Under the pieces are notes generated by a model. The model searched no databases and was not told the DNA's origin. It saw only the letters and a list, made by a program, of their open reading frames with translations. DNA of 64,000 nt. Source: Vulcanimicrobiota bacterium. Lineage in GTDB: Bacteria; Vulcanimicrobiota; Vulcanimicrobiia; Vulcanimicrobiales; Vulcanimicrobiaceae. The stretch covers positions 512,001 through 576,000 of the forward strand of contig CAWGBN010000006.1 in NCBI GenBank assembly GCA_963820825.1, given 5' to 3'. This document shows, piece after piece, positions 12,262 to 18,085 of the stretch. The first letter of the stretch is position 1; the number at the start of each line of letters is the position of its first letter. A program made the position numbers and the translations under genes.

Positions 12262-12378
12262 GCTCTTCACTCTACCCGATTCGACCGTCCGGCTCCGGCG
12301 TCTCCTGCAGGGATGATTATCGGGAGGAAGGAAAGCCGCCACCTGCTTACTTCGCATTCGCTAGGGAGAGAGAACCGC

Positions 12379-12783
12379 ATGAAATCTTTCGGTCGCCTGT
12401 TCGCGGTGGCGCTCGTGGGCATCGCTGCCGCAACGGCATCGATGGCGCCGGCGCAAGCCGCCGCGCCGATCCTCATTAAGAGCTGCACCGTCAACAAACC
12501 GAAGCCGCTCAGCCATCAGGCGAGCGGCACGCACATTGTCTACGTCAACCTCGGCAAAAAGACGGCGGCGAGCGTGACGTTCTTGGTCGGCTATCGTAAC
12601 GCGCAGAGCCACTATCTGCGCCGCGTGGAGGACGTCGGTTCCTTCGCGCCCGGTGCGACGATCGATCACACTCTCAGCCTCTACAACGACGTCACCTATT
12701 CCGGCGCACAGACGAGTCAGTGCGCGGCGATCGAGGTGAAGTGGGCCGGCGGCACCATTTGGATGGCGCCATCCTCGCACTAA
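12379..12783 (+). CDS. Small secreted beta-rich protein, 134 aa
   Basis: GGAG SD; signal peptide MKSFGRLFAVALVGIAAATASMAPAQA; two Cys; DVGSFAPGATIDH. Confidence 0.8.
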   Translation: MKSFGRLFAVALVGIAAATASMAPAQAAAPILIKSCTVNKPKPLSHQASGTHIVYVNLGKKTAASVTFLVGYRNAQSHYLRRVEDVGSFAPGATIDHTLSLYNDVTYSGAQTSQCAAIEVKWAGGTIWMAPSSH

Positions 12784-12802: not shown

Positions 12803-12838
12803 AAGAGGCCGGTCGCTCGGATCGGCCCCTTCTTTTTT
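12803..12838 (+). terminator. Rho-independent terminator
   Basis: Stem AAGAGGCCGGTC / GATCGGCCCCTT (one G-U pair, one mismatch) followed by CTTTTTT. Confidence 0.75.
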
Positions 12839-12844
12839 GGCGGG

Positions 12845-13519
12845 ATGGCTTTCTCGGCTGTCGAAGCGCGAAGCGTGCGCGTCGGATTGCGGACGATCGT
12901 CTCCCTCGCATTGTGCGCCGCAGCCGCCGGGGCGGCGATCGCCCATCTTGCGATCGACGTCGTCGGCGACTACGTTCTCGCCAGCGACAGCTACGACCAT
13001 CTTCGCCACGGCTCGCGCGAGCTGCTTACCGGCATCGCGCTCATCGTCGCCGCCGTTCTGGCGGCGCAAGGGCTGCGGATCTGCTGCGAGATTGCGTCCA
13101 AAAACCGGACCCGTTTGCTTCGCCCGTCGCTCCCACTGCCGGAGACCATCGGTATGCTTGCCGGCGCGGCAACGGCGAGCCTCGCGATCGTGCCCGGCAT
13201 GGAGTATCTCGACGGGCGGCTCGACGGTATGCCGGTGCGCGGCATCGCCGACGCATTCGGCGGTTCGATTCCGCTCGGTTTGGCCACAACACTGGCCTGC
13301 GCCACGCTCGTCGCCATCTCGGTTTACGCCTTCGCTCGCTGGTTGATCTCGCATCGCGATTCCGTCGCGACGATCATCGAGACGCTCTTGCGCCGCAGCG
13401 TCGAGAACGATCGGCCGCAAGAGTACGACCTCACTGCGCAGCGGGTAATGGTCCGCCGGCGCACTCCCAACGCGCTTCGCCTCGCTAAGCGCGGACCTCC
13501 TCAGACTCGCTTCGCGTAG
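12845..13519 (+). CDS. Multi-pass membrane leader protein with C-terminal RGPP motif (putative translation-arrest regulator)
   Basis: About four hydrophobic segments, a His/Asp loop, and a C-terminus LRLAKRGPPQTRFA; 42 bp upstream of a TonB-dependent receptor. Confidence 0.8.
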   Translation: MAFSAVEARSVRVGLRTIVSLALCAAAAGAAIAHLAIDVVGDYVLASDSYDHLRHGSRELLTGIALIVAAVLAAQGLRICCEIASKNRTRLLRPSLPLPETIGMLAGAATASLAIVPGMEYLDGRLDGMPVRGIADAFGGSIPLGLATTLACATLVAISVYAFARWLISHRDSVATIIETLLRRSVENDRPQEYDLTAQRVMVRRRTPNALRLAKRGPPQTRFA

Positions 13520-13555
13520 CCAACCCCAAACAACCGAAGCACTCGTCTACAGGAG
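13497..13555 (+). promoter_or_regulatory. Putative mRNA hairpin that occludes the Shine-Dalgarno of the receptor gene
   Basis: Nested complementarity: CTCCT 13497-13501 with AGGAG 13551-13555; AGAC 13503-13506 with GTCT 13545-13548; GCTTCG 13509-13514 with CGAAGC 13535-13540. Confidence 0.65.
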
Positions 13556-13561
13556 CACTCC

Positions 13562-16147
13562 ATGGGAATTCCAGTCGCATGCGTTCGCGCGTGCGTTTCC
13601 TTAGCACTCGCGGCCGCCATTTCAACGGCCGGCATCGGCATCGCGCAAGCGCAGAGCGCTGCGCTCGACGTTACCGGCTCGGTAACGGCAAACGACGGAA
13701 CGCCGATCGCCGGAGCATCGGTCGTCCTCTCATCGTCGGGAGCGTCGCAGGGCGCTCGAAGCGACGCGAGCGGTCACTTCGTCATTCACAACCTGCGCCC
13801 GGGCACGTACGCGCTCCACGCCGCCGCGCCCGGATACGAAACGATTTCGCAACGCACCGTTACGGTCGATTTCGTCAGCGCGACGCTCACCGTCACGCTC
13901 TCGCCGGCGACGACGAACTCACTCACCGTCATCGGCGAGGTGCGAGCCTCCGCCGGTGAAACGGTTTCCACCGCGTCGGCTCCAAGCGTCACGCTCAGCG
14001 CGCAAGACGCCGCCGCCGCCGGGGTGACGAGTGCGGGAGCGATGATCTGGCCGCAACTCTCGGTAACGCCGGTCATTCCGTTGGGCGGCGGCAGCAACGC
14101 AACGCAGACGTTTGCCGTGCGGGGTCCGGACCCGACCGAAACGTTAGTGGACATCGACGGGCATCAAATGAACAACGGCAACACCGGCGACTTTGATCTT
14201 TCACTGCTCGATCCGGCGGCGTTGCAAGAAGTGCAGGTCATATACGGCATCGCTCCGTCGTCGCTGATCGGTCCGAATACGATCGGCGGCGGAGTCAACA
14301 TCCTCACGCTGCAGCCGAGCATCGCTCCGCATTCGCTGCTCCGCTTCTTCGGTGGATCGTACGGCACGTTCGGTGGAACGGTGCAGACTACGGGAACGGA
14401 CGATCGCTTCGGCTACGCCGTCTCGCTTCACGCCACCAGTTCGCTCGGCTCGGTGAATCAAACCGTGGTGGCGCCGCCGCCGGGTGGAACGCCGCCGGGC
14501 CCAGGCGGCGACGCGCGTCCGCTCGACGATCAGGAGGAGACGCCGCAACAAGTCGGCAGCAGTTCGTATGGCAACTCCATTCTGACCAAGCTGCGCTATC
14601 AACTCGGCGGCCCGACCGGCTACGGCTACATCCAATTCAATTTCCGCAACGAGAACGTCAGCAAAGACGAGTCGGCTCTGCTCACCAACTACACGCCTCC
14701 GGGCTTTAGCGGCGGCGGTGGCGACGCGCTCCATTTCGGGGCGGCCCGGCCGCTCGACGACGACGAAACGACCAGCGGCTATCAGAGCTTCGCCGGGACG
14801 TGGCTCCAGGCGCATCAGTCCAACTATGGATTCGACGCGCAAGTGCCGTTGGGAGGCGCGCAGGTGAACGGCGCGCCGGCAACGCTCCTGCAGTTCAGCC
14901 ACCTGACGTCGGTCGCCTCACAGTCGGTCGCCGGTCCGGGTGCCGAGACGATGCAGTATCTCTACAATCAGCGCGATCTGCTCGGCGACGATTGGCTCGA
15001 GGTCGATCAGCACTTCAACACCGGGATGCTTTCGTTCAAGTACGATCTCGGTACGGAGAGCCTGACGACCAACTACGTGCAAGGGCAGGTCGTCGCCGAG
15101 GCTCGTCCGATCGGCGGCGGTTTTGGGCCGACCGGCCCGGCGGTGGCGCCTGCACTGATACTGCCGGCAGTTCAGCCGCCGATTCAAACACTCGGACTCT
15201 CGCAGACCGAGCGCTCCGCCGTGTTACGATACAACGGCGACCCGACCAGCCACATTCACTATTCCATTGCGGCATATCAAAGCAACTTCAGCACGTTCGG
15301 AACGAGCTTCGATCCGCGCGCCGGTTTCGTCTGGACGCCGACGGGGAACACCGCGGTGCGCGCTTCGGTCGGTACGACCTTCCAGACGCCGCAGCTCTCC
15401 GAACTCGTGGTGCCGCCGCCGCAGGATCGGGTTCCCGTTGGGGGCGTGATCTACACCGGCAACCCGAATCTGCAGCCCGATCATGCAACCGATTACGACC
15501 TGGGCATGGAGCAGATCTTTGGAAAAGCGCATCATCCGCTGCACCTCTCGATGGATCTCTACCAGACGAATCTGCGCTCGCCGTCGAGCCAGCTCAACGT
15601 CATTCCGGTCCCGCATTGCGAACATAAGCACGTGCCGTGTCCGATCAGCATGCCGGTCAACGCCGGCAACGGCGTCTATCGCGGGATCGACGTTCACGCC
15701 GATCAACAACTCGGCGGCGACTTCCACATTCGCGCGGGATGGGACGTCGACAGCTCGTTTTTGACCGTGATTCCGGTCTCCGTCCAAGACGGAACGCTCG
15801 CCGCCGGAGAGCAGTCGCTTGGGCAACCCCTGCACAAGGCCTATCTGGCGGTCGAAGAGCAGCCGCCGCAGGGCTTGAACTACGGCGCCGAGCTCAACTA
15901 CGAGGGCTGGTACAACGAGCTGAACCGCTCGCCGTATGCAACCCTCAACGCGCACGTCGCCTACACGCACGACGGTTTCGAGTACGGTCTGTACGGAACG
16001 AACCTCACGAACGTTTACGCCGACCCGTTCACGGTCGTCGGCGGCGGATTCGTCTATGGCGGAATCCCGGGCGCTCCGGTCATTCCGACCAATTCGTTCG
16101 TCTTGCAGGGCGCTCAAGTCATCTTCGTCGTGACGAAGTCAATCTAG
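13562..16147 (+). CDS. TonB-dependent receptor with N-terminal carboxypeptidase-regulatory-like domain
   Basis: Signal peptide; GTPIAGASVVL domain; plug motifs (FAVRG, TLVDIDG, IGGGVNI); GNPNLQPD; C-terminal beta-strand. Confidence 0.9.
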   Translation: MGIPVACVRACVSLALAAAISTAGIGIAQAQSAALDVTGSVTANDGTPIAGASVVLSSSGASQGARSDASGHFVIHNLRPGTYALHAAAPGYETISQRTVTVDFVSATLTVTLSPATTNSLTVIGEVRASAGETVSTASAPSVTLSAQDAAAAGVTSAGAMIWPQLSVTPVIPLGGGSNATQTFAVRGPDPTETLVDIDGHQMNNGNTGDFDLSLLDPAALQEVQVIYGIAPSSLIGPNTIGGGVNILTLQPSIAPHSLLRFFGGSYGTFGGTVQTTGTDDRFGYAVSLHATSSLGSVNQTVVAPPPGGTPPGPGGDARPLDDQEETPQQVGSSSYGNSILTKLRYQLGGPTGYGYIQFNFRNENVSKDESALLTNYTPPGFSGGGGDALHFGAARPLDDDETTSGYQSFAGTWLQAHQSNYGFDAQVPLGGAQVNGAPATLLQFSHLTSVASQSVAGPGAETMQYLYNQRDLLGDDWLEVDQHFNTGMLSFKYDLGTESLTTNYVQGQVVAEARPIGGGFGPTGPAVAPALILPAVQPPIQTLGLSQTERSAVLRYNGDPTSHIHYSIAAYQSNFSTFGTSFDPRAGFVWTPTGNTAVRASVGTTFQTPQLSELVVPPPQDRVPVGGVIYTGNPNLQPDHATDYDLGMEQIFGKAHHPLHLSMDLYQTNLRSPSSQLNVIPVPHCEHKHVPCPISMPVNAGNGVYRGIDVHADQQLGGDFHIRAGWDVDSSFLTVIPVSVQDGTLAAGEQSLGQPLHKAYLAVEEQPPQGLNYGAELNYEGWYNELNRSPYATLNAHVAYTHDGFEYGLYGTNLTNVYADPFTVVGGGFVYGGIPGAPVIPTNSFVLQGAQVIFVVTKSI

Positions 16148-16292: not shown

Positions 16293-17108
16293 TTAGAAGA
16301 GCATCGTCTGAAAATCGCCGACGCGCTCGAAGCCGACGCGCCGGTAGAGTGCGATCGCGCGTTCGTTGAAGTCGTTGACGTAGAGCGAAAGCGTCGGCGA
16401 AACGTCGAGCATCCGATCGCAGAGCGCGGCGAGCGAACGGGTCGCAAGGCCGCGCCCTCGCAACTCCTCCGGCGTCCAGATTCCCTGTAGCTGAATCGTC
16501 TTGGTGCACCAGGGGCCGATGTTGCAGAAGAAGCAGATGCGGCCGTCGGCTACGCCCACCCACCATAAGTTTCGTTCGATCATTTCGCGAATGCCCGCGC
16601 CGAACTCCGGAGCGCCGCGCCGGGGATCGTAGGCGAGTTCCTGCCGGACCATCTCGGCCGAGCTTTCGGCGACGGCACGCCATTCGTCGAGGCCCGCGTG
16701 CCGCACGGTTATTCCGCGGCGCTCGTGGCGGCGCAGGTTGGCGCGATCGACCATCATTACGTATTGGCGATCGCGTACCAGGCGCGGCGGAGCGTGCCAC
16801 GCGCGAACGGCCTGCCAGTATTGCGCAACGGTCTCGCGCGGTCCGACGATCATGCGTTCGCCGCGATGGCGTCTGGCGTATTCACCGAAATCGCCGACGA
16901 CCGCCGGTTCGGCGGCGAGCACGAGTTGACGTCCCCAGTAGGCGACGCCCAGCACCTTCCCGCGCTCGAGCGCAACCGCAACGTGCTTTCGTTCGGAGAG
17001 CGACGGATTGTGCAAGAGCACGTGAGAGAGGAAGACGTTGAGATATGGCGAGCGCGCGAGATACTTCAATGCCGGCGCTCGCGTCGCCTCAGAAATTGAT
17101 TCGATCAC
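16293..17108 (-). CDS. GNAT family acetyltransferase
   Basis: WTPEELRGRGLA and NERAIALYRRVGF. GTG 17108 overlaps the upstream TGA, so the N-terminal extension in the ORF track is spurious. Confidence 0.9.
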   Translation of the reverse strand: MIESISEATRAPALKYLARSPYLNVFLSHVLLHNPSLSERKHVAVALERGKVLGVAYWGRQLVLAAEPAVVGDFGEYARRHRGERMIVGPRETVAQYWQAVRAWHAPPRLVRDRQYVMMVDRANLRRHERRGITVRHAGLDEWRAVAESSAEMVRQELAYDPRRGAPEFGAGIREMIERNLWWVGVADGRICFFCNIGPWCTKTIQLQGIWTPEELRGRGLATRSLAALCDRMLDVSPTLSLYVNDFNERAIALYRRVGFERVGDFQTMLF

Positions 17109-17614
17109 GGAGCGGAGAGATTTGCGTCCATCAGCGGTTTGCTCGTCGGTTCTTTGCTGCCCCCATCGGGCTCGAGGGTGACGGAAACCTCGGCGGTCGA
17201 ACGCGCGTCGGCAGGGAGAACGATCAGCGCGACGCCGCGCGCATCGGGCAAGAAGGTGGGCGATGCCAGCGGTTTGGTCGATCCTTTTGGCGTCGTCCAC
17301 GCTTGATAGACCTTGCCGTGCGGCGGTTCCGGCACCGCCCGCAGCGCGAGGTAGATCCGGCTCCCGTGCGTGACGACTTCGCCTGCACCGAACTGATAGT
17401 GGCGAGCGTGCGTATCGAGCACGTCGAAGAGCGCGGTGCGTTCGCCGGCCAGGTTGCGAGCGAGCGCAATCGATCGCTCGGAGAGATGGGCGAGCTCCCG
17501 CTGCTGCTGTTTGATCTGTCCGAGCAGCGAGATGTTCGCAATCGACGAAATCAATGCGATCGCGAAGCAGGCTGCGGCGACGAGATATACCGGCCATGCC
17601 GTTGCGGACTTCAC
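17105..17614 (-). CDS. Anti-sigma factor RskA-domain membrane protein
   Basis: TM helix, coiled coil, PPHGKVYQAW and VTLEPDGGSKEPT. Confidence 0.8.
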   Translation of the reverse strand: MKSATAWPVYLVAAACFAIALISSIANISLLGQIKQQQRELAHLSERSIALARNLAGERTALFDVLDTHARHYQFGAGEVVTHGSRIYLALRAVPEPPHGKVYQAWTTPKGSTKPLASPTFLPDARGVALIVLPADARSTAEVSVTLEPDGGSKEPTSKPLMDANLSAP

Positions 17615-17677
17615 CTAAAGTATCTTCCCATGGCATCTTCGAGGCCCTCCGCCGGGCCACGTCGTAAGTCTGCCGCC

Positions 17678-18085
17678 ATGGAAGCGCTCGACGAGCTGCG
17701 GGCAAAGATCGCCGATTTTCCGGGCTATGGCGACGACCTCAAGTTGCGCCGCTCCGACGAATACGTTCGCGCGTATCTCGGGGAGGCACTGGCCGGGATC
17801 GGTACGCGCTGCGAGCTGGCGCCCGACGTGCGCCAGCGCCTCGACGACCTGCTGCTGCGCGTCGAGTTCGCCGATGCGCGTGCGTTTGCGACGCACCGCG
17901 TCGCGGGAGCGAGCGAACCGCGCGACGGCGTCCACGCCGTAGCGGAGGCGGACGTCGCGACCGTCGCACTCGCCGATCGCGCGGCATCGATCGATGGAGT
18001 ATCGGCGCCGCTTTTCTTCGACGACGTCGTCGCCGTTCTCGGCGAGCGCGACGCGGCGATCCGCGCCGCCATGAAGATGGCGTAG
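17678..18085 (+). CDS. Hypothetical helical protein, about 135 aa
   Basis: MEALDELRAKIADFPGY...; its stop overlaps the GTG start of the GH20 gene. Confidence 0.7.
   Translation: MEALDELRAKIADFPGYGDDLKLRRSDEYVRAYLGEALAGIGTRCELAPDVRQRLDDLLLRVEFADARAFATHRVAGASEPRDGVHAVAEADVATVALADRAASIDGVSAPLFFDDVVAVLGERDAAIRAAMKMA

Follow-up and report, generated by a model that had tools for sequence, protein, structure and literature searches.

The window, a stretch of 64,000 nucleotides from the genome of a Vulcanimicrobiota bacterium, carries two closely spaced genes on its forward strand. The upstream one encodes a leader protein of 224 residues that ends in ...AKRGPPQTRFA, and the downstream one, whose AUG lies 42 nt beyond the leader stop codon, encodes a TonB-dependent receptor (Table 1). 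The Arg-Gly-Pro-Pro motif (RGPP) occupies residues 216–219 of the leader, and its codons contain CTCCT (13497–13501), which is complementary to the Shine–Dalgarno (SD) sequence AGGAG of the receptor gene (13551–13555). The initial annotation of this stretch had singled out these elements, and its reading of the end of the open reading frame (ORF), of RGPP, of the complementary CTCCT and AGGAG and of the stem coordinates is correct throughout. Comparison of related sequences demonstrates the gene family, its terminal motif, the pairing of the two genes, the RNA helix that joins them and a fixed spacing within the leader. Leader and receptor together make up a module that one family of the Eremiobacterota conserves and that likely acts as a stall-based translational switch.

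Table 1. Features of the leader–receptor module in the window
Feature	Position	Strand	Basis or remark
Terminator-like hairpin and T run	12807..12836	+	Stem 12807–12827, then CCTTCTTTTT; just 5′ of the putative sensor gene
Leader (putative sensor) gene, 224 residues, four predicted membrane helices, KRGPP plus 5 residues at the end	12845..13519	+	
His/Asp cluster H34, D38, D42, D48, Y50, D51, H55, S57, R58; predicted outer end of helix 1 and loop 1	12944..13018	+	
Second conserved, predicted outer loop, M119, E120, D123 ... G139, G140, S141	13199..13267	+	
Fourth predicted membrane helix, residues about 142–169	13268..13348	+	Hydropathy, AlphaFold model
R-G-P-P codons CGC GGA CCT CCT; presumed arrest site and 5′ strand of the SD-covering helix	13490..13501	+	
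Hairpin predicted to sequester the SD	13493..13561	+	Predicted fold; covariance-model match 13490–13565
Stop codon of the leader gene, 5 codons past Pro-Pro	13517..13519	+	
Receptor Shine–Dalgarno AGGAG, 6 nt 5′ of ATG 13562	13551..13555	+	
TonB-dependent receptor, 861 residues: signal peptide, CarboxypepD_reg, Plug, barrel	13562..16147	+	

The ORF at 12845–13519 is a genuine gene, to judge from its relatives. A word-indexed search found 254 homologues at E≤1e-3, the best 120 of which share 58–100% identity with the leader and are the close homologues counted below; the genomic comparison covers 74 related loci. A profile search of 1.84 billion proteins returned 233 clusters at 50% identity. 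The membrane domain is conserved throughout the close homologues (64% mean column identity), yet the protein matches no Pfam family at E≤0.01 and no NCBIfam family, DUF2946 included, and its neighbours in the ESM Atlas carry no family either. Apart from a few oddly labelled metagenome-assembled genomes, the taxon names given for relatives are all of the Eremiobacterota or Vulcanimicrobiota. Among 401 sampled genomes of the phylum, 140 contain a match: 135 of the 296 from the window's own family, with 75 of the 79 from its genus, and 4 of the 30 from a second family; the other 19 families sampled gave none.

The gene next to the leader is just as constant. Of the 65 downstream ORFs at close loci, 63 were scanned after two near-duplicates had been dropped; CarboxypepD_reg is found in all 63 and Plug in 62, and every full-length ORF includes the barrel. 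At these loci a spacer of 27–56 nt is followed by an ORF of about 820–870 residues. CarboxypepD_reg and Plug also lie downstream in 13 of 13 distant members examined. The window's own genome has two leader copies, along with 4 TonB_C and 11 Plug matches, and a leader gene with four transmembrane (TM) helices was recognised upstream of 2 of those 11 Plug matches; upstream of the other receptors in this genome, R[AG]PP strings occur just in arbitrary frames. In NCBIfam the receptor shows just sub-threshold matches (haem, B12, CirA and others), and its resemblance to structures in the PDB, those of Cir and BtuB, extends to the plug and no further. With likeness at that level, none of haem, B12, CirA, Cir or BtuB was assigned as its substrate class.

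The motif near the leader C-terminus is almost without exception. All 120 close homologues have it, as KRGPP in 118 and KRAPP in 2, and exactly five residues follow it in 113. In the genomic comparison, a short-tail leader copy is present at 69 of the 74 loci; the 70 such copies comprise 69 with RGPP and 1 with RAPP, and 67 have the five-residue tail. At greater distance, 136 of the best 150 cluster representatives contain R[GA]PP (83 RGPP, 53 RAPP), placed 1–14 residues from the C-terminal end in 118, and the 14 representatives that lack it look like fragments or frame-shifted calls when their ends are inspected by eye. Arg216, Pro218 and Pro219 are invariant in an alignment of 111 sequences with 22–38% identity to the query. 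The initial annotation had staked its proposal on conservation of RGPP, and the motif is conserved at every depth of the family. In the long ORFs of the genome, RGPP is rarer than expected (7 occurrences against 19.3). Both RGPP and RAPP are described as halting ribosomes in many sequence contexts, RGPP being the strongest and most avoided stalling tetrapeptide (PMC12992588). The toeprint of the arrest peptide CruR puts the P site at Pro3 and the A site at Pro4 (PMC12992588); by analogy with CruR, ApdA and ApdP, the P and A sites of a ribosome arrested here should hold Pro218 and Pro219, respectively.

The choice of codons for the motif points to a second role in the RNA. Pro1 is encoded by CCT in 56 of 66 copies (85%) and Pro2 in 48 of 66 (73%), in a genome of 64% G+C where CCT accounts for 5.5% of proline codons and CCTCCT for 0.7% of Pro-Pro pairs. 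The skew is confined to the motif: in the same loci, CCT makes up 6.8% of the codons for other leader prolines, 8.1% of those for the invariant Pro117 and 6.1% of those for receptor prolines, and CCTCCT makes up 1.0% of the receptors' Pro-Pro pairs. The glycine of the motif is likewise encoded by GGA in 50 of 66 copies, against 12.7% of leader glycines. Seven loci have CCG at Pro1, and all of them have CTC CTG two codons later; in these seven and in L061 the SD is predicted to pair at the substitute site.

The nested hairpin described in the initial annotation is the minimum-energy fold given by RNAfold for the window (−23.2 kcal/mol), with a single-sequence stability no better than that of shuffles. 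It consists of CUCCU 13497–13501 paired with AGGAG 13551–13555, AGAC 13503–13506 with GUCU 13545–13548, and GCUUCG 13509–13514 with CGAAGC 13535–13540, around an A/C-rich loop at 13515–13534 (8 A, 9 C, 2 G, 1 T); a fold that spans the Arg codon to the AUG also pairs GGA 13493–13495 with UCC 13559–13561. Among 64 distinct sequences, the predicted pairing of the SD core with the Pro-Pro codons is complete in 50 and partial in 2. Full pairing of the SD with the last 24 nt of the leader plus its stop codon is predicted at 59 of 62 loci, as compared with 2 of 23 control gene pairs, which were same-strand pairs of the window's genome with similar spacing and a GGAG. Conservation of the anti-SD pairing, the other point on which the initial annotation had rested its proposal, is thus borne out by these counts and by the skewed synonymous codons.

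The covariation analysis that the initial annotation had called for also favours the helix. When arms were swapped among 36 representatives, cognate arms gave −17.15 kcal/mol and non-cognate arms −14.04 kcal/mol, and 0 of 20,000 permutations did as well. An anchored, ungapped count over the six pairs beyond CUCCU/AGGAG found 217 of 384 cells paired against 190.4±6.3 (0 of 5,000). In a hand-checked alignment of 20 sequences, 82.4% of cells are paired against 74.0±1.0 (0 of 500), 7 pairs have changed on both sides against 3.6 (0 of 500), and the covariation score is 0.233 against 0.104 (0 of 500), with slid controls at or below 0.103. A larger alignment of 58 distinct sequences, made with a covariance model, gave a score of 0.194 against 0.108 (0 of 500; slid controls at or below 0.081) and 82 cells changed on both sides against 31.3 (0 of 500). 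The covariance model, built from the 20 sequences, found 60 sites in 724,523 nt, with coordinates at the leader 3′ end; its sole match in the window is 13490–13565, at 32.2 bits. On the alignment made with this model, the 9-bp SD helix is 88% paired and shows compensating changes in 4 pairs. The swap, permutation and covariation tests support the helix at the level of sequence comparison, and because its layout is conserved with compensating changes in more than 60 related loci, that layout goes beyond chance.

The short tail of the leader deserves separate mention. Its final Phe-Ala residues and the stop codon are conserved (13508–13516 in the window, and in relatives), and the codons GCUUCGC form the inner stem with the spacer. 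This inner stem of tail codons and spacer covaries as well (helix 3 of the 58-sequence alignment), and the RNA may be part of the reason why the tail is conserved. At five loci (L013, L014, L015, L022 and L059) the spacer is longer, 55–56 nt, and the SD is doubled (CAGGAGTACAGGAG); an extra local hairpin, GACUCC...GGAGU, masks the first SD copy there. Such loci could be two-step switches.

A set of long-tail paralogues shows what the module can dispense with. These are present at 16 of the 74 loci and in the window's own genome (L002, outside the window), and their reading frame meets no stop codon for 19–186 codons after R[GA]PP. Often the first receptor is immediately followed by the long-tail copy and then by a second receptor, so that leader and receptor occur twice in tandem (33 loci). 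A receptor ORF begins 49–58 nt past the Pro-Pro codons in another frame, and four of these ORFs are complete, at about 917 residues. Here CGCGGACCUCC pairs with GGAGAUUCGCG in a predicted helix that extends over the SD and the spacer as far as the first base of the GUG start codon; the preference for CGC and GGA is therefore explained along with that for CCU. The stall site, and not the stop codon, is thus the constant feature. Copy L002 (G000:C6:585149-585772) is the second copy of the module in the window's genome and lies about 9 kb past the window end. It has KRAPP (AAG CGC GCC CCT CCC) and no stop for 126 codons, and its CCCTC is complementary to the SD, GAGGG, of a receptor gene; that gene begins 52 nt further on, in another frame. 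At about 12 of the 17 distant loci with a recognisable gene an anti-SD is present, located within the motif, among the tail codons or immediately past the stop codon.

Hydropathy and an AlphaFold model of low confidence (mean pLDDT, the predicted local distance difference test score, 62.8) agree on four long helices in the leader, at residues 15–47, 56–86, 98–123 and 142–169. The N-terminus, loop 2 and the tail bear positive charges, a distribution from which we infer that both termini are cytoplasmic; His34, Asp38, Asp42, Asp48, Asp51 and His55, as well as Met119, Glu120 and Asp123, would therefore lie on the outer side. The cluster of His and Asp residues at the end of helix 1 and in loop 1 contains most of the most conserved residues of the leader family. 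In the 111 distantly related sequences, Asp38, Asp48, Asp51, His55 and Asp123 are invariant, and conservation is 90% or higher for His34, Asp42, Tyr50, Ser57, Arg58, Met119 and, at the start of helix 4, Gly-Gly-Ser (GGS). The cluster is a putative periplasmic site for a ligand or metal. There is no CxxC in the leader; the adjacent Cys80 and Cys81 are invariant just among close homologues and are not conserved in the wide family. A Foldseek search of the PDB with the leader model found no match at E≤0.001, the best hit being at 0.89.

The distance from the membrane domain to the motif is nearly constant. From GGS to the motif Arg there are 77–79 residues in 120 of 120 close homologues and 76–79 in 122 of 131 distant sequences, despite poor conservation of the tail between, and the end of helix 4 is separated from the first Pro by 47–49 residues in 115 of 120 close homologues. 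This ruler would place helix 4 just outside the exit tunnel at the moment of stalling, in a position that fits release by the force of insertion or folding, as known from force-profile work.

These elements can be assembled into a scheme for the switch, in which we infer the stall itself, what it does to the receptor and, most of all, the signal. Like other RAPP/RGPP arrest peptides, the leader would stall the ribosome at Pro218/Pro219. The R-G-P-P codons, otherwise paired with the receptor SD and the bases before the AUG, would then be held inside the ribosome. A stalled ribosome grips roughly a dozen further bases of mRNA, so that the helices formed by 13493–13506 would be blocked and the SD, 40 nt further on, would be free. 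The receptor start site would be accessible for as long as the stall lasts, and the receptor would be made. On release, the ribosome would terminate five codons later, the helix would re-form and the receptor would be shut off. Nothing but stalling would keep the site open for long, because a ribosome that has reached the stop codon has already freed the anti-SD strand behind it.

Release would probably be set by the four-helix domain, which has just been inserted when stalling occurs and whose helix 4 ends 47–49 residues from the Pro. We tentatively suggest that the trigger is the cargo of the receptor, perhaps a metal ion or its chelate, which would bind the outer His/Asp cluster, whereupon folding would pull on the nascent chain. 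For an importer such logic is sensible by analogy with CruR: cargo would relieve the stall, as copper does there. In its most elaborate form, which is speculative and which we regard as rather doubtful, the four-helix domain would be a complete transmembrane signalling device in one protein: the outer cluster would read periplasmic cargo while the chain is still ribosome-bound, and a pull on the chain, conveying this reading across the membrane, would set how long the anti-SD stays hidden in the ribosome, with no kinase, sigma factor or transcription factor. In the long-tail paralogues the leader frame runs across the receptor start site without meeting a stop nearby; synthesis of the sensor may there never be completed, and it may act just as a nascent chain.

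Several results weigh against a stall-controlled RNA switch or temper it. The window hairpin taken alone is no stabler than chance (z=−1.08; 27 of 200 shuffles are as good), and mean fold energies are −19.4 kcal/mol for the family and −20.0 kcal/mol for control intergenic regions; the geometry of the pairing is special, its stability is not. In 4 of the 64 folds (L012, L027, L035 and L071) the SD pairs elsewhere or not at all, and about 4 of the 17 distant loci with a recognisable gene show no clear pairing. The number of pairs changed on both sides in the 58-sequence alignment, 10 against 8.6 (91 of 500), is not significant. RNAalifold applied to a plain MAFFT alignment of 64 sequences returned two trivial pairs and no consensus helix; since MAFFT misplaces bases 5′ of the SD, anchored counts, the swap test and curated alignments were used. 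The structure tested was taken from one member, the 58-sequence alignment was fitted to that structure, and related sequences are non-independent events in covariation statistics. The spacer (63 loci; 13520–13550 in the window) is 37.9% C and 10.5% G, where the genome has about 32% of each, and Rho is encoded in the genome; spacer and Rho therefore leave room for a transcriptional output of the CruR kind. What the ligand might be is guesswork: the receptor matches no characterised subfamily in NCBIfam or the PDB, and the model of the leader is of the low confidence given above.

Ordinary translational coupling offers the simplest alternative. Any ribosome passing along or terminating on the leader would open the helix, the leader would be an ordinary inner-membrane partner of the uptake system, and RGPP would at most impose a constitutive pause, fixing the proportions of the two proteins, with release answering to no signal. 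The 4-TM domain is indeed conserved in full, as a working protein would be, the leader stop codon lies just 42 nt before the AUG, and the hairpin is of ordinary stability. Coupling has no need, however, of a fixed ruler between helix 4 and the motif, nor does it account for R[GA]PP being invariant even where the remaining tail has diverged, for the choice of a tetrapeptide that is under-represented in the genome and reported as the strongest in stalling (PMC12992588), or for long-tail paralogues without any nearby stop; we consider it unlikely. A transcriptional switch like that demonstrated for CruR (PMC9426467), in which the stalled ribosome would shield the C-rich spacer from Rho, release would lead to termination before the receptor and the SD helix would be secondary, draws on the composition of the spacer and on the presence of Rho. 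At 27–56 nt, the spacer is short for a Rho loading site. Its C-rich, G-poor composition may reflect such a site, or it may merely avoid pairings that compete with the helix; moreover, the RAPP of CruR uses frequent codons, and the rare anti-SD codons and compensating changes found here indicate an RNA helix. Control of this kind seems quite improbable.

The remaining two explanations concern the peptide itself. The leader might monitor membrane insertion (Sec/YidC capacity), as MifM or SecM do, and sense no cargo. Membrane helices and a distance of 47–49 residues between helix 4 and the stall fit force-sensitive release of that sort, but the downstream gene is an outer-membrane receptor in 63 of 63 and 13 of 13 cases and never a Sec or YidC component, and the outer His/Asp residues are invariant here; we know of no monitoring substrate that needs a conserved polar cluster. 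The probability of this explanation is very low. Lower still, close to negligible, is that of RGPP as a by-product of a required CCUCC anti-SD strand, with no role for the peptide. Motif codons and anti-SD strand coincide in most close loci, as such a by-product would require, but loci with CCG CCC or CCG CCG keep R-G-P-P though the anti-SD has moved, and in distant members R-[AG]-P-P persists although its codons vary widely and the anti-SD is found among the tail codons or beyond the stop. These loci, where peptide and anti-SD are uncoupled, largely refute it.

The surroundings of the two genes in the window add little to the module. The initial annotation had noted a terminator just upstream of the leader, and a terminator-like hairpin followed by a T run is indeed present, with its stem at 12807–12827; the region holds 4 terminator-like sites against 3.5 in shuffles, no excess. 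A comparable upstream hairpin with a T run was found at 14 of 60 related loci by a strict script, and a conserved terminator was accordingly dropped as a part of the module. A promoter scan of this region of the window found no sigma-70-like promoter upstream of the leader gene. ATG 12845 lies 10 nt past the T run without a good SD, many homologues start at the position equivalent to GTG 12875, and this GTG may be the true start of the gene. Just 5′ on the same strand, 12313–12783 (+) encodes a 156-residue signal-peptide protein without a Pfam or NCBIfam family. A homologue of this ORF occupies the same place at 54 of 65 related loci, and the protein may be a further component of the uptake system. 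Convergent to the receptor gene are a GNAT/DUF4081 acetyltransferase and an RskA-type anti-sigma-K C-terminal domain, at 16293–17705 (−) and 17105–17614 (−). Both genes look ordinary, and the module in the window thus stops after the receptor.

If the proposed switch is real, the reach of RAPP/RGPP control goes beyond small exported leaders and takes in a polytopic membrane protein that carries a conserved sensor domain, in a phylum, the Eremiobacterota, for which to our knowledge there is almost no genetics. The design would be a compact one, the four codons that stall the ribosome doubling as the strand that hides the ribosome-binding site of the next gene; such a dual role would explain why the rare CCU and GGA are kept in a genome of 64% G+C. 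The module also marks a class of CarboxypepD_reg-type TonB-dependent receptors, and its regulation could reveal the cargo that they import. How arrest is released in RAPP/RGPP leaders of genes outside the Sec system, and whether mechanical force is responsible, are questions raised in PMC12992588. A fixed ruler, invariant His and Asp residues and natural variants in which the anti-SD has moved or the stop is absent make the present family a clean test case.

In known regulatory systems (SecM-secA, MifM-yidC2, VemP-secDF2 and ApdA/ApdP), a ribosome that stalls late in an upstream ORF unfolds the hairpin in which the SD of the following gene is hidden, and release depends on a membrane or secretion signal carried by the nascent chain. 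The module resembles them in having the downstream SD in a hairpin within reach of the stalled ribosome, as predicted for 59 of 62 loci and 2 of 23 controls. Monitoring substrates, whose N-terminal parts are poorly conserved, regulate the Sec or YidC machinery. In the present module, by contrast, an outer-membrane receptor is the target, and invariant polar residues mark the N-terminal domain.

Similar in genetic arrangement is CruR (Bp2923, DUF2946), which precedes the gene of the TonB-dependent transporter BfrG in Bordetella pertussis and works through Rho-dependent termination, its ligand copper relieving the stall (PMC9426467). The initial annotation's account of CruR agrees with that paper. 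Both upstream genes end in R-A/G-P-P a few residues before the stop codon, and in both the spacing between sensor and arrest motif is fixed, at 45 residues from CxxC to RAPP in CruR and at 76–79 residues from GGS to Arg in 242 of 251 sequences here. The differences proposed at the outset hold as well: CruR is an exported protein of 145 residues with a signal peptide and CxxC, whereas the leader has 224 residues, four membrane helices by prediction and a highly conserved His/Asp cluster, and lacks CxxC and DUF2946. The RAPP codons of CruR are frequent ones; those of the present motif include the rare CCU codons that build the SD-covering helix. CutF, also of DUF2946, precedes cutO in Rhodobacter capsulatus; there, as proposed here, a nascent protein senses the periplasm, and its stalling melts a stem-loop that shields the ribosome-binding site (bioRxiv 2025.02.05.636593). 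CutF is nevertheless an exported protein, non-homologous to the leader, in which copper induces stalling, and its target is a detoxifying oxidase and not an importer. The DUF2946/CruR/CutF type as a whole comprises exported proteins of about 120–150 residues with a cleavable signal peptide and a copper-binding CxxC, and the leader, with 224 residues, four predicted helices and no CxxC, falls outside it.

A 2025 survey in EMBO J (PMC12992588) describes proteins of fewer than 300 residues with RAPP/RGPP near the C-terminus and a localisation signal, encoded upstream of TonB-dependent receptors among other genes, and treats those before such receptors as widespread. According to the same source, several arrest peptides of Streptomyces lividans have membrane segments, and a signal sequence is nearly universal among the leaders of TonB-dependent receptors. 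The window's leader shares the sequence-level features of this class, with its motif near the C-terminus, its membrane segments and a close downstream gene on the same strand. Row 8329 of the survey's RAPP list is a relative of the leader family, a distant one of 222 residues that shares a cluster with P0198 and has a TonB-dependent receptor next to it. The string 'Eremiobacter' has no match in the main text and 10 supplementary files of PMC12992588, a search outside of which the survey's RGPP list falls; full-text literature searches found no paper on the leader family, and the consulted part of the lanthanide paper PMC10875860 contains nothing on the leader–receptor module. The suggestion in the initial annotation of a new sensor class thus stands in so far as the family is not homologous to CruR or CutF. 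It was overstated in that RAPP/RGPP leaders of receptors had been surveyed in 2025, with one relative listed, and because a ribosome-binding-site stem-loop melted by stalling has also been described for CutF. As far as these sources go, the leader family is new and non-homologous to CruR and CutF, and the kind of control that it appears to exert is already published.

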